Source: Microbotryum violaceum (taxonomy: Eukaryota). Taken from it: a stretch of 64,000 nucleotides of DNA. Of this stretch, positions 2,961 to 35,400 are shown piece by piece; the stretch's first letter is position 1; each line of letters opens with the position of its first letter. The notes under the pieces are model-generated. The model made no database searches. It had not been told where the DNA came from and was given only the letters and a program-made list of their open reading frames with translations. A program made the position numbers and the translations under genes. The stretch spans positions 3,038,001 to 3,102,000 of the forward strand of contig CDLV01000004.1 of assembly GCA_001244265.2 (NCBI GenBank). The letters are read 5' to 3'.

Positions 2961-2991
2961 CTGACGTGTCTTGATCGTTGTCAAAAAAAAT

Positions 2992-3145
2992 TGGAAGCAC
3001 CGCGTGCAGCGGTGCTCCAGAACGATAGACAGGATCAAACAACAGTAATTCACTAGAACCTCGGGTCAGTGAGCTGGCGAAAGCCAAGGGAGGTTCTATG
3101 CGCGCGCAAGCTATTCAACTAAGCCAAAAGTTCTATCGCCTTCCA
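2992..3145 (-). repeat. 5' LTR of Gypsy-1 (154 bp)
   Basis: Bounded by inverted termini TGGAAG...CTTCCA and lies just upstream of gag; the partner LTR is outside the window. Confidence 0.7.
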
Positions 3146-3149
3146 TTGT

Positions 3150-31200: not shown

Positions 31201-32237
31201 TATCGCGCAGTAGGTTGCCGGTTGAAGCGTTGTAAATGCGCAAGGAGCCCATGGTTAACTCCCTCTTCGGCCATGCAAACACGAAAATCTGGTTGGCTTG
31301 CGATCTTGCCAGCCGCACGCGGTCCGCTGGATCCCACCTGCTCCGGTGATAGGACGGTTCTTTCAGCCACGGCTGACTCGAATGCATGAAGTCTTTGGGC
31401 CAGCTTTTAGCGCAAACAGGCGGCAAAGTTGGGCAAATGACGTACCCCGCAGCCTCGACGTGCCAACCCTCAGCGCCTGTATCCACGTCCCTGCTTCGCA
31501 AGATACCCCGAGCATAACTGACCAAGGTCCGATTAAAACCATCATGGTCCCCCCAGCAAATCGCATCGCCTGCGAGCTGCGCCGGGCCGAGCACAAAGTC
31601 GTCGGCGCCGCTCGTCGGAGACGCCCATCGAAGCTCGCCCGTCGTTGCGTCGACGACTTGCAGGTCGCCAAGGTCGGCCCGTGACAACACGACGAGACCT
31701 AGTGCGGGGGATATCAAGCAATGGATTCAGCATCCAAGATCGATGAAAATGCGGATGCGGATGCTACATACTGTCATCCCCGCAAGCAAAGTAGCTGAGC
31801 TTGTGCGCGTGCGGACCGTACAATCGTCGCCATCCTGAAACGAAGATACCGAAGTGCATAACAGATACGTACGGACATGTACATGTCAAGCTCGCAGGTT
31901 AGTGTCGGGTATGCTAGGCGGGGGTGGGGCCACGTAACGAGGTGCTCAAGCCAACGAGACGAGCGACGAGTGACTGACGGAGAGTGCCATTGGCGGGGTC
32001 CAGCGCGGCCAGAATGTTCTTGTTGGTCACAGTGAGCAGGATCGAACGTTTTCGCGAGGATTCGTCGTGGCTTGCGACGTGCCTGAACTGATGCAGTGGC
32101 TCCGCGGTGAAGTCGACGCGCTCGCGAGGGAGGCCGATCTGCACTCGATGCCAGTCTGGCGAACCGAGTGCGCGGGCCGCCGTCGAGTGCAATACGGTCA
32201 GCAGCAGCGGCAGCATCCAGCGCACACGAGGCCACAT
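28279..32237 (-). CDS. EMC1: ER membrane protein complex subunit 1, multi-exon
   Basis: Signal peptide then DWHRVQIGLP; beta-propeller-like middle; GRVLGDRSMLLKYLN, LDPRR, EESLIPY, GADLF...PSKSFDVLSPSFNKIQL and TM helix; inferred last exon VHSQQTRRRWY...* ending 28279. Confidence 0.9.
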
Positions 32238-32454
32238 TTCGGGTCCGACGCAGCGGGCGAGCGAACGAGCGTGTGTGGCGAGCGCAATGTGGGTGGTTGG
32301 AGAGCGGTTGGCAGCGTCGGATAGACACAAGTGGGGCGAGTTGGGTCGAGCTGTGAGGCCCGAGCTGCCTCGCACGCGCATGACCAACGACTGAATCTGG
32401 CCGAAACCCGGCTAGCCGAATATTGGACCATTATTAGCCGGTTTCCCCCTTTTG

Positions 32455-35400
32455 TGTAGTTCAGTCTCGGTCCTCTCTCTCCCTCTGAAGAGGAACACAT
32501 TCATTCGAACCGACCCCCTGAAACCAGAATACAGTCTACAATACCTCTTCAAGGACAACGACGACGAGTCGATCGGCCCAGTACTCGCGATCCTTCTGTA
32601 AGGCCACCGGCCTTACATCTTTTTTTTATTGGGCTTCAGCAACCCCGAACTCGACACCGAACCGTCGTTGGAGGACAAGCCGAACGACAACCCTTACCGC
32701 CAGCAGTCTCAAGATACTTCGCATAGTACCTCTTGGACTGACTTCTGAAGAAGTTGTCTGCCTTGAAGAAAGGTGTATCTGATCTGGTAACAGATAAAAA
32801 CGTTGCTTAGCAACAGAACCTCGTTGCGAAAGCCTCGACCTCGTGTCGTCGCGAGTAACACGACGTGTCAATTTTCACTCCTGAGTGAAAAGGCACAGAC
32901 CTCTCTTTTTGAGATCGACCACGTTGCTTCGCTGGACGAAAGTAACTGATTTGAGTAGAGGACGTAATAACCCTCGTATACTTGAAGATACCATGGCCGA
33001 CAACAGAAGCGAACGTGTGTTTACCACTTCGCTACGAAACCCCGGCCGAGTATGAGGTTAGCTACCTCGAAAGAGGAGACCCTAGCTGCACCCAAAAAAG
33101 ACAAGGGTGTGGCACGAAGTGATGATTCACCATCACTAATTGGTGCCCGAGCAGCGATGCCAAGGCTTCCAATGTCGACACGGGCCGATGACCTCGCCCG
33201 AGAAAACCGACGTGTTTCGGCGCCGATGCCGAACCGAGAACGAACTGGCGGGTACCCCCATCTCAGGATGGAGGCCAATAGCAGCACGAAAGTCCTTGAC
33301 ATCAAGGATGCTGCTGATTCCAGAGTTGAAAAAACTCAGAAAGAGGTTATTGACTCAGCCTCACAGACCGAGCCTGGTGACTCAGGCTCCGATTGTAAGG
33401 CGCGCGCCTTACTACGGGCCACAGGCACTAGAAATAGAGATCGCGCGCACCTAGCTTCTTCAGTTCCCTCCTCATCGGGCTGACACCAGAAGCTAGGTGA
33501 GTACTGGTGTTCCATATCTCAGCACTCTTGTAGATGATCAGGCTGACACCAGAAGCTAGTTGCAATCCATATAACTTGCACCTGTCAGCTTAGGTCACCA
33601 GTGAGGCTCGAGGGCGATCTCGTGCCTTTCACCAATGACCGCTCGATCGATGGAAGTGATTCCACAATTATTGCGCACAAACCCACTGGCCTAGCTAGAG
33701 AAACATCTCAGGAGACATCACAGACCTTCTCCGGAGGTACAAAGTTGACTTTGCAAGCGAACACAGACACCTTGCTGAAGAGATACCTGACACCCAACCG
33801 GCTGAGATGCTACTTGTTGGGTGATATCAACCTGCACAATCTTAGAGAGAGAAAAGTCAGGTTGGATGATCCCTCCTATTATGGGGGATCATACAAAATG
33901 AACTTCAATTTGTATGACGAACCGGATCACACCACTGCATTTCACACAGAATTGGAGAAAAAATCCGTGAAAACGAACGAACCCAGATCGGTCTAGCTTT
34001 CAAGTGAAGATCGATACCAGGGAGAGCGACGAGAGGCCGCGTCAGAAGCAGCCCCGACTCAGAATCTTGCCCAACATGCAAGTCAGGAGGCGCCCCTCCG
34101 AAACGAAATGAAGCTGAGCCGCGGCAAGCAGCCGGCTCACCAAGACCCCAAGACCCCGAGCAATGATTGCGAAGCCAGACAAAAAGCTGCTTCTCAAGCT
34201 GCTTACACACCACGCAGAGGCGCGTTCATTGAACCCCCCTCAGATGACGACTCATCATCGCCGTCCTTGGAAGAAAGCAAGTCGGACTACGACCGTCATG
34301 ATCGACGATCGCGAAGGAGCAAACGAAAGGCGCGCAAACCGTGCGACCCCAATTCATCAGACAGCAAGTCGTCGTCAGATTACAAACCCCGAAGATCCCT
34401 TTGGGAAGGAGCATCGAGACGGCAAAGGCATGCTCGTGACCGTCACGAGTCATCTGATTGCTATGAGCGAGAAGAATGTGCCCCGCGCCCAAAAATCGAG
34501 ACTCTGACAAAGTACAGCGGATCAGACGATCACCCAATTACCTTGAGAAACTGGACACACGACGTCGAATCATTTTTGCACACGATGTGAATTGATCCCG
34601 AGACGTACGCTGCCATTCCATACATTCAAATGTGCTTGGAAGGGCTAGCAAAGCAAACCTATACCGAATGGCAAGAACGGATGAACAAAGAATGGCCAAG
34701 TTGTGGTGAAGGTCGCAAAACCTGCCCATACCCATTCAGCAGGGTGACGCGGAAGTTTGAAAAGACTTTCGTGTCACCAACTGCGCACAGAGAAGCGGAA
34801 ACCAGGTGGCGAAACATTCATCAAGAACGGCCCGACGGCAGTCTTTGACTGACGGCTGAGGTCATCCGTGAAATCACGCAAGTCTTGCAAGAGCATTCGT
34901 CTACGAGCGAACGAGACATGACCCGCAAACTCTACGACGCTCTGGATCCTCGTCTGATCGTGCATGTTCAGCACTTCAGGGGAGATCCCGATAGAGTGAC
35001 GTGGACCAGAATGCGTGCGATTGTGCGAGAAGCCGAAGTACTTTTCAACATCCAACAGAACAGTGTCATGGCAGCCAAGCTACCGCCGCATGAACGTATA
35101 CCCAATTACGAAGCAGCAACAAGCGGTCTAGCCATGAACCGACGATTGCGAAAAGCGACCAGGAAATCAGACACCCGAGATGAGAAAGCAAGTGCTACTG
35201 CTGCTTCGGGCAGCAAGCATTCTGACCAGAAAAAGAAATCCAAAGCGGAAAAAACGAATCAGGGAGCATCTCAAGGCTCAAAGCAACATGAGAACCAAGA
35301 ATCGAAGCATAACACGTCGAAGGAAAAAGCCTCTGACAGTGCGGCGCAAGCTGCCCTCCAGGAAGAACAGATGAAAAAAGGCATCTGCTTCAGATGCGGA

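Follow-up and report, generated by a model that had tools for sequence, protein, structure and literature searches.

In well-studied long terminal repeat (LTR) retrotransposons cDNA synthesis is primed by a tRNA or, in the case of Tf1, by the element's own 5' end, and the question raised by a 64,000-nucleotide stretch of the Microbotryum violaceum genome is what primes the first strand in elements that show neither arrangement. In this stretch (contig CDLV01000004.1 of assembly GCA_001244265.2, positions 3,038,001 to 3,102,000; referred to here as the window, with positions counted from its first base) the 5' LTRs of two chromoviruses, Gypsy-1 and Gypsy-2, and the presumed LTR end of an incomplete site, 'Gypsy-3', finish in a hairpin followed almost immediately by a pure run of T, at the primer binding site (PBS) position. 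The same signature recurs in related loci from metagenomes, and the leader is predicted to fold like the self-priming leader of Tf1. We tentatively propose that the T-run is itself the chromovirus PBS and would be primed by a poly(A) or oligo(A) 3' end, a reading that sequence comparison makes a real possibility, if somewhat short of an even chance.

A preliminary description of this DNA had reported a hairpin at each of these three LTR ends and at a solo LTR, and all four sequences it quoted proved to be present where it had located them. In Gypsy-1, Gypsy-2 and 'Gypsy-3' alike the T-run starts 1-2 nt past the terminal CA of the LTR. Runs of T8 occur at only six loci in the 64 kb and three of the six are these sites, and GCCTTACA occurs seven times against 1.0 expected, a count reached by 0 of 100 shuffles; together with the hairpin energies given below, this rarity and this excess exclude chance.

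Gypsy-1 lies on the minus strand, with its 5' LTR (TGTGCAAGG...GGTGCTTCCA) at 2992-3179 and the inner end of this LTR abutting the T-run. The outer edge was placed from loose contig ends at 3177-3182 in X3 and X8, two of four further sequencing runs (X1, X3, X8 and X9) whose contigs we compared and treated as DNA, since genes and spacers were covered alike; the 3' LTR lies beyond the window. The terminal U5 hairpin (TGGAGCACCGC-TGCAC-GCGGTGCTTCCA, 2992-3019) has a minimum free energy (MFE) of -19.1 kcal/mol, with a z-score of -4.8 against shuffles, and is followed by a spacer A at 2991 and by T8 at 2983-2990. This is the sole run of at least six T across the 2991 nt of the element that fall within the window, and run contigs show T9 instead of T8 in other Gypsy-1 copies or strains (place 2982). 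Beginning at the first base past the T-run, the leader segment X' (GACAACGATCAAGACA, 2967-2982) pairs with a U5 segment X at 3028-3044, a duplex that is not significant alone (z -0.8, with 40 of 200 shuffles equally good). The internal region (1-2982, minus strand), which is cut by the window edge, has Pfam matches to gag, protease (PR), reverse transcriptase (RT) and RNase H, and its gag is homologous to that of the T-run-bearing metagenomic loci described below.

Gypsy-2, also on the minus strand, has both LTRs within the window, the 5' copy of the repeat at 10456-10678 and the 3' copy at 6620-6784, flanked by a 5-bp target site duplication (TSD) that reads GCAGT on the minus strand (10679-10683 and 6615-6619). 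A solo LTR of the same family (6021-6242, plus strand, TSD CTCAT) carries the same terminal hairpin with no T-run behind it. Contigs of X1, X3 and X9 contain the empty site of Gypsy-2 (joint 6612>10677) and that of the solo LTR, for which there is also a paralogous empty site at 11244-11288; because both are absent from the contigs of three runs, their ends are exact and the insertions polymorphic. The internal region (6785-10455) encodes a short N-terminal part, PR, RT, RNase H, integrase (IN), an SH3_Tf2-1 domain and a chromodomain, that is, the chromovirus order PR-RT-RNase H-IN with the chromodomain at the C-terminus; in Gypsy-1, cut by the edge, PR, RT and RNase H are the only parts of this series within the window. 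The Gypsy-2 coding region contains one in-frame stop and one frame change, and most of gag is missing compared with Gypsy-1. A polypurine tract (GGTGGTGGAGAG, 6785-6796, minus strand) abuts the 3' LTR.

The Gypsy-2 U5 hairpin (10456-10484, minus strand) is two-tiered, reading AGGTGTA / CACTCC-AAC-GGGGTG / CAT bulge / TACA, and its outer stem extends into the spacer C and the first T's (10453-10455). Its MFE of -11.3 kcal/mol is not significant alone (z -0.5 against shuffles), and both the solo LTR of this family and the 3' LTR preserve the pairing through G-U changes. At the PBS position stands T9 (10446-10454, spacer C at 10455), the sole run of at least six T in the 3671-nt internal region, which contains no run of six or more A. 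The leader segment X' (CACACCGGTCAAAG, 10432-10445) can pair with the U5 segment X (CTTTGGTCCTGTG, 10504-10516), again not significantly when taken alone (z -0.7, RNAduplex). An internal duplication around CAGCGACTGATACGAGTGTCCAG (10556-10613, minus strand) makes the 5' LTR exceed the 3' LTR by 58 bp. LTR starts are also hairpinned, around the terminal TGTAA, for example as TGTAAGGCCC-GTGCGCCT-GGGCCTTA; in the window this is seen at 10651-10678, 6757-6784, 6021-6048 and 3153-3179, and the same type occurs in the metagenomic loci L007, L018, L027, L033 and L055. Both LTR tips therefore lie inside inverted repeats, the upstream one of which abuts the polypurine tract.

The preliminary description had counted three Gypsy families, of which Gypsy-1 and Gypsy-2 are borne out by their domains and 'Gypsy-3' is not. 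At the latter, on the plus strand, a hairpin (TGTAAGGCC-ACC-GGCCTTACA, 32597-32617; MFE -18.4 kcal/mol, z -4.0), presumed to be a 5' LTR end, is followed by a TC spacer (32618-32619) and T8 (32620-32627). The leader segment ATTGGGCT (32628-32635) begins at the first base past the T-run and can pair with GGCCCAGT (32575-32582), with a z-score of -0.7 that is not significant alone. Within the window there is no second copy of the LTR, no PR and no IN, and chromovirus domains were not found. Judged from its motifs, the downstream open reading frame (ORF) with an RVT_1 match (35859-37634) looks like a non-LTR, LINE-like RT. Only a gag-like ORF at 33997-35655 (plus strand), which contains a CCHC knuckle and is interrupted in frame by two TGA stops, could be part of an LTR element here, and it is possibly the gag of 'Gypsy-3'; its Retrotrans_gag match (E 0.048, 14.3 bits) lies under the Pfam cut-off of 24.1 and, unlike the Gypsy-1 gag, it resembles no gag in the 80 related loci. 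Inside the long leader of this site there is an LTR-start-like hairpin (TGTAAGGCGCGCGCCTTAC, 33394-33412, plus strand) that may represent a further inserted LTR. The solo LTR of the preliminary description (40827-40943, plus strand, 117 bp, TSD TTGAT), which belongs to another family and sits inside a Copia element, does end in the hairpin GTAAGGC-AACCGA-GCCTTAC, followed by A; the T-run is absent downstream, as expected of a solo LTR.

The arrangement extends well beyond these copies. The protein collection contains 1366 relatives of Gypsy-2 pol at E<=0.001, and of the 120 listed the best come from Microbotryum, with others from red yeasts, rusts and one mushroom-forming fungus. Fifteen of these pol relatives were aligned and used to scan metagenome contigs, which yielded 80 loci with identities of 37-55%. 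Both LTR ends are readable in 15 of these loci, and there the 5' LTR ends in the hairpin and CA, followed by C, six to nine T and GA or AA, with the duplicated target after the 3' LTR. Upstream of the RT match, at a distance of 1.2-4.1 kb, CAC followed by T6-9 was located in 27 of the 28 loci with at least 2.7 kb of upstream sequence. Where 2.0-2.7 kb is available the motif is present in 17 of 22 loci, and where less than 2 kb is available in 1 of 30. Over the 544 kb of the 80 loci there are 51 sense and 5 antisense matches. At 45 of 45 sites the T-run is a pure homopolymer that starts 1 nt after CA, with a length of six (2 sites), seven (9), eight (14) or nine (20) and never more, and the two bases after it are GA (33 sites) or AA (12). 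Viral contigs gave 71 pattern matches and no relatives, and there are no transcript-like contigs among the 80 loci and none with a poly(A) end.

Two contig ends coincide with this border. The start of L003 (L003:1-60) carries an adapter-like sequence, which we take to be an Illumina adapter, fused to AC, T9 and the leader; the junction implies that the library fragment ended one base inside the LTR end. Another contig ends four bases into the LTR, before C and T9 (L038:1-20). Such ends may mark a natural nucleic-acid end at the border of U5 and the primer site, or an assembly accident at the edge of a repeat.

We examined the folding of the leader around the T-run. When 52 nt around each site were folded, 44 of 50 sites gave a two-tier hairpin made of an outer stem AGUG:CACU, an internal loop and an inner stem, 6-10 bp long and different in sequence from family to family. 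The outer stem takes in the CA of the LTR, the spacer C and the first U. A covariance model (R1) built from 10 related sequences gave 54 matches in the loci, and in its alignment 96.5% of cells are paired compared with 74.9% in shuffles and 27-53% with slid partners, the alignment having been fitted to the model, which biases it toward pairing. The hairpin is thus conserved and covarying, which supports the preliminary description in this respect: all 10 of the 10 inner-helix pairs show compensatory changes, with G-U pairs on the sense strand, and the outer helix is invariant. The conservation of the spacer C is explained by its place in this invariant helix.

A second helix, which the preliminary description had overlooked, joins U5 to the leader just past the T-run. 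The 20 nt that follow the T-run were matched with U5, and in 38 of 46 sites the most favourable duplex begins no more than 2 nt from the end of the run (median z -2.0); a recurring U5 motif, TCCTGT, takes part in it. In MFE folds of 42 sites, from 100 nt upstream to 40 nt downstream, the T-run is 81% unpaired. These folding models show the leader as the self-priming 'pretzel' scaffold of the Tf1/sushi group, with six to nine predicted unpaired U's held between two helices. In many relatives the internal loop of the first helix is U-rich (95% U over 96 nt on its 5' side and 75% over 140 nt on its 3' side), and 28 of 44 related sites have at least two U on both loop sides with flanking G-C pairs, up to five U's each, as in L045:73-118 and L026:505-553. 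Comparison of seven loci with Rfam at E<=5 gave four weak, unrelated matches and no ENE family.

The hairpin loops show some inversions. In L055 a 7-nt loop is reverse-complemented between the 5' and 3' LTRs (TAGAAGA vs TCTTCTA, 434-481 vs 6020-6067), and three related families have the loop GAAA where L022 has its reverse complement TTTC (L022:619-665 vs L023:38-84), which looks like template switching across a palindrome. Hairpin priming of the parvovirus flip-flop kind was rejected as a general mechanism, as a clear loop inversion is seen in only 1 of 15 elements, namely L055; L069 may hold a second, of 4 nt.

A partner for the T-run was sought within the elements and among tRNAs. There is no run of six or more A anywhere in Gypsy-2, the A-runs of the Gypsy-1 and Gypsy-2 LTRs do not exceed two, and no run of five or more A occurs in the 12 related LTRs, as the preliminary description had claimed for the LTRs it saw. 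Of 15 full elements, three lack an internal run of at least six A and the rest have it at no constant place. Its statement that no TGG-type tRNA site stands behind these LTRs also held: in the window elements and the 45 related sites no TGG-starting tRNA complement lies within a few nucleotides of the 5' LTR, and the T-run stands there instead. As no matching A-run is encoded, classical Tf1 priming from the 5' end is practically excluded, as is a tRNA primer. The leader segment past the T-run varies together with the U5 of each family and therefore does not serve as a binding site for a host RNA. A pairing between the U-run and the polypurine tract was rejected, being feasible through G-U pairs alone; a purine-rich 5' self-primer was discarded as the LTRs are CT-rich after the TATA box; and reading the hairpin and T-run as a terminator of the bacterial or RNA polymerase III type would leave the element without a primer site. 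Judged from sequence, a poly(A) tail would be the only obvious partner of the U-run.

The T-run is not a habit of the whole genome. The two Copia elements of the window (38193-43116, minus strand, which carries the 117-bp solo LTR, and 15210-18962, plus strand) both have GGTTATGAGC directly after the 5' LTR, presumably a primer site of the half-tRNA-iMet type, and their presence in the same window shows that the T-run is specific to the chromovirus lineage.

The preliminary description had measured these leaders against a tRNA PBS. This point of reference is superseded, as the self-priming leader of the Tf1/sushi group is the relevant ancestor state and the hairpin matches its U5-IR-like duplex. 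The Tf1 leader is described as three duplexes, one that pairs the mRNA 5'-end self-primer with the PBS and two that join PBS-adjacent to LTR sequence (PMC10085805), and the self-primer is reported to be cut by RNase H after base 11 (PMC7175516). Like Tf1, Tf2 and Tj1, the elements studied here are chromoviruses with a Tf2-type integrase SH3 domain and a chromodomain and without a tRNA site, although the Pfam SH3_Tf2-1 match of Gypsy-2 is the only sequence pointer to this kinship. Both have a U5-IR-like duplex that uses the LTR end and a duplex just downstream of the PBS, so that the PBS position is bracketed as in the Tf1 account (PMC10085805); for the related loci these correspond to the 96.5% paired cells of the R1 alignment, fitted as it is to a pairing model, and to the 38 of 46 sites with a downstream duplex, the window elements being singly not significant. 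Unlike Tf1/sushi, the PBS position here is a pure U6-9 that has no complement in the LTR, nor at any constant place in the element.

The anomaly itself is already in print, unexplained, in reports on SM-Tcn1, Skipper and Tcn2-5. Novikova et al. (2010) find no PBS in SM-Tcn1 of Selaginella and nothing that points to self-priming, and describe a conserved stretch rich in thymine that lies between the 5' LTR and gag (PMC2864245). For Tcn2-5 of Cryptococcus a potentially novel priming was proposed in 2001, according to a 2020 review (PMC7175516), and Neumann et al. (2019) predict self-priming for the plant Tcn1 clade (PMC6317226). The accounts of SM-Tcn1 and Tcn2-5 mention no flanking helices, and their motif is compared here by description only. 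Skipper of Dictyostelium and Protostelium, in which Spaller et al. (2016) report a polypyrimidine tract in place of the PBS and propose a novel kind of self-priming (PMC5006619), is close: it too has a chromodomain, and its left LTR is followed at once by a pyrimidine tract for which the LTR holds no complement (PMC5006619). The elements studied here show such a leader, with no TGG; their tract is pure T after a single spacer, whereas that of Skipper is described as degenerate with a characteristic C, again a comparison by description only.

Other systems share single features. ENE elements, known from KSHV PAN, from plant and fungal transposable element RNAs and from Evade, are stem-loops with a U-rich internal loop beside G-C pairs, which the hairpins of many related loci may resemble (PMC7583470, PMC12501189); the loops here are shorter, lie in the 5' leader and U5 rather than the 3' UTR, are absent from the hairpins of the window and have no Rfam match. 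LINEs and SINEs, in target-primed reverse transcription, begin their cDNA at an A-U(T) homopolymer duplex with a poly(A) tail, as we propose here, but their tail is the template end and T-rich nicked DNA the primer, whereas in the present proposal the U-run would serve as template and the tail as primer. Avian retroviruses differ in that their site is an 18-nt tRNA complement, the tRNA-Trp PBS. They resemble the present elements in that U5-IR and U5-leader stems bracket a single-stranded primer site, an arrangement that is mentioned in PMC3601003. Our full-text literature search, in which 'poly(A)' itself was unsearchable as a term, returned no paper showing or proposing poly(A) priming of an LTR element. 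What is new here is the Microbotryum members, the clade-wide count, the covarying LTR-end hairpin, the second helix and the mapping onto the Tf1 scaffold.

Since two duplexes flank the U-run at the place where Tf1 has its PBS, the U-run is by position the primer site. We consider it quite possible, at somewhat less than an even chance, that in a large fungal chromovirus clade the minus strand is primed by the genomic RNA's own poly(A) tail, on a U-run between Tf1-like helices and with help from an ENE-like loop in many members. An oligo(A) 3' end, most simply the tail of the element's own packaged RNA, would anneal to the U-run, stacked between the two helices, either using the tail end directly or after a cut of the tail at the helix junction by RNase H as in Tf1, and its extension would proceed across U5 and then R. 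This would leave the minus-strand strong-stop DNA linked to the 3' end of the same RNA, beside the 3' R for transfer, and the plus-strand jump could proceed via the T-run copied from the primer.

Several points weigh against this proposal. A primer duplex of six to nine A-U pairs would be weak, as would the plus-strand jump, and the limit of nine on the T-run at the 45 sites is unexplained by a long poly(A) and fits better with a fixed spacing between the helices. The strict motif is lacking in L041, the one exception among the 28 well-covered loci, which has none upstream, and in five of the 22 mid-covered loci; of these five, L058 has CA-A-T7, like Gypsy-1, and L003 has T9 at the contig start. 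For the window itself, R1 finds none of its own, more divergent hairpins at E<=1, the U5-leader duplexes are individually not significant (z -0.7 to -0.8), and the Microbotryum hairpins, three in the window, are without the U-rich internal loop. We know of no LTR element that has been shown to use poly(A). For Skipper, moreover, a simple poly(A) primer seemed unlikely to Spaller et al., as the tract carries C (PMC5006619).

The chief rival is self-priming of the Tf1 type in which the U5 segment paired past the T-run would be cut at its 3' side to give the primer, with the U-run a copied spacer that integrase trims from the right cDNA end. In Tf1 the primer is not known to be removed, and a long 3' extension is trimmed by its integrase. 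Such a route fits the family habits of Tf1/sushi-like chromoviruses with SH3_Tf2-1 and a chromodomain, would make direct use of a U5-leader helix of about 13-19 bp that starts right past the T-run in 38 of 46 sites, and agrees with the self-priming predicted for the related plant Tcn1 clade (PMC6317226). In the Tf1 account, however, the primer pairs with the PBS itself, and the helix on the downstream side is one of the flanking duplexes (PMC10085805); a spacer need not be a pure U-run, yet it is one at 45 of 45 sites, and the route would also require trimming of at least 10 nt after CA and a poly(A) site within the last ~50 nt of the LTR. We regard it as unlikely, though a serious contender. 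It is rather unlikely that the U-run and U-rich loop instead bind the poly(A) tail without priming, as an ENE-like clamp or a 5'-3' bridge serving RNA stability or the first strand transfer, with priming by some other route. The U-rich loop on both sides in 28 of 44 sites, flanked by G-C pairs, may belong to such a clamp, and ENEs are reported to be frequent in plant and fungal LTR retrotransposons, one of them raising the mobility of Evade (PMC12501189; PMC7583470). The loops are nevertheless shorter than the five U's of the solved ENE, seven loci gave no Rfam family match at E<=5, the Microbotryum elements have the T-run but lack the U-rich loop, known ENEs sit near the 3' end, and a clamp still leaves the element without a primer site.

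Poly(A) priming may also be set against a start from another primer or from none, namely a host RNA with a short oligo(A) end, a start on the U-run that is de novo or protein-primed, or recruitment of RT by a U-binding protein. What speaks for these are negatives only, the lack of a tRNA-type site and of an encoded complement, whereas no domain was seen beyond the usual PR-RT-RNase H-IN-chromodomain set and this group offers no known precedent; we hold them to be quite improbable. Priming by a tRNA or tRNA fragment at or near the site is very improbable indeed. If the GGTTATGAGC that stands right after the LTR of both window Copia elements is of the half-tRNA-iMet type, as we assume, priming by a fragment would be available in this genome, but the chromovirus leaders have no TGG site, no tRNA is known to carry a run of six to nine A, and the sequence after the T-run differs between families and covaries with their own U5.

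The surroundings of these elements are crowded with mobile DNA, comprising the two chromovirus copies, the two Copia elements, LINE-like RTs, an RNase H/tyrosine-recombinase fragment and a Helitron. The fragment adjoins the Gypsy-1 LTR, where ORFs at 3182-5933 (plus strand) have weak RNase H and weak tyrosine-recombinase (Phage_integrase) matches, and is probably Ngaro/DIRS-like. LINE-like RT regions lie at 35859-38248 and at 44602-47986, the latter with a weak zf-RVT match, and the Helitron, with Helitron_like_N and PIF1 matches, at 50524-53293, all on the plus strand. The host gene OST48 (26782-27585) encodes a protein 97% identical to a Microbotryum silenes-dioicae protein, which places the window in an anther-smut fungus, and a 28-nt A-run (26243-26270) is found upstream of it.

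Even without a mechanism, the signature of the group is sharp: a hairpin, CA, C, T6-9, a purine and A, and then a helix back to U5, which gives exact positions to mutate. Mapping it onto the Tf1 scaffold reduces the puzzle to a few direct experiments. If the proposal is true, these chromoviruses would use a third priming route, via the poly(A) tail, a 3'-end version of self-priming that needs neither a tRNA nor an encoded primer. This would solve a puzzle noted in 2010, in 2016 and, according to the review, in 2001, and it would change how annotation tools, for which such elements now have "no PBS", recognise primer sites. It would likewise change the link to be expected between tail length, deadenylation and retrotransposition.

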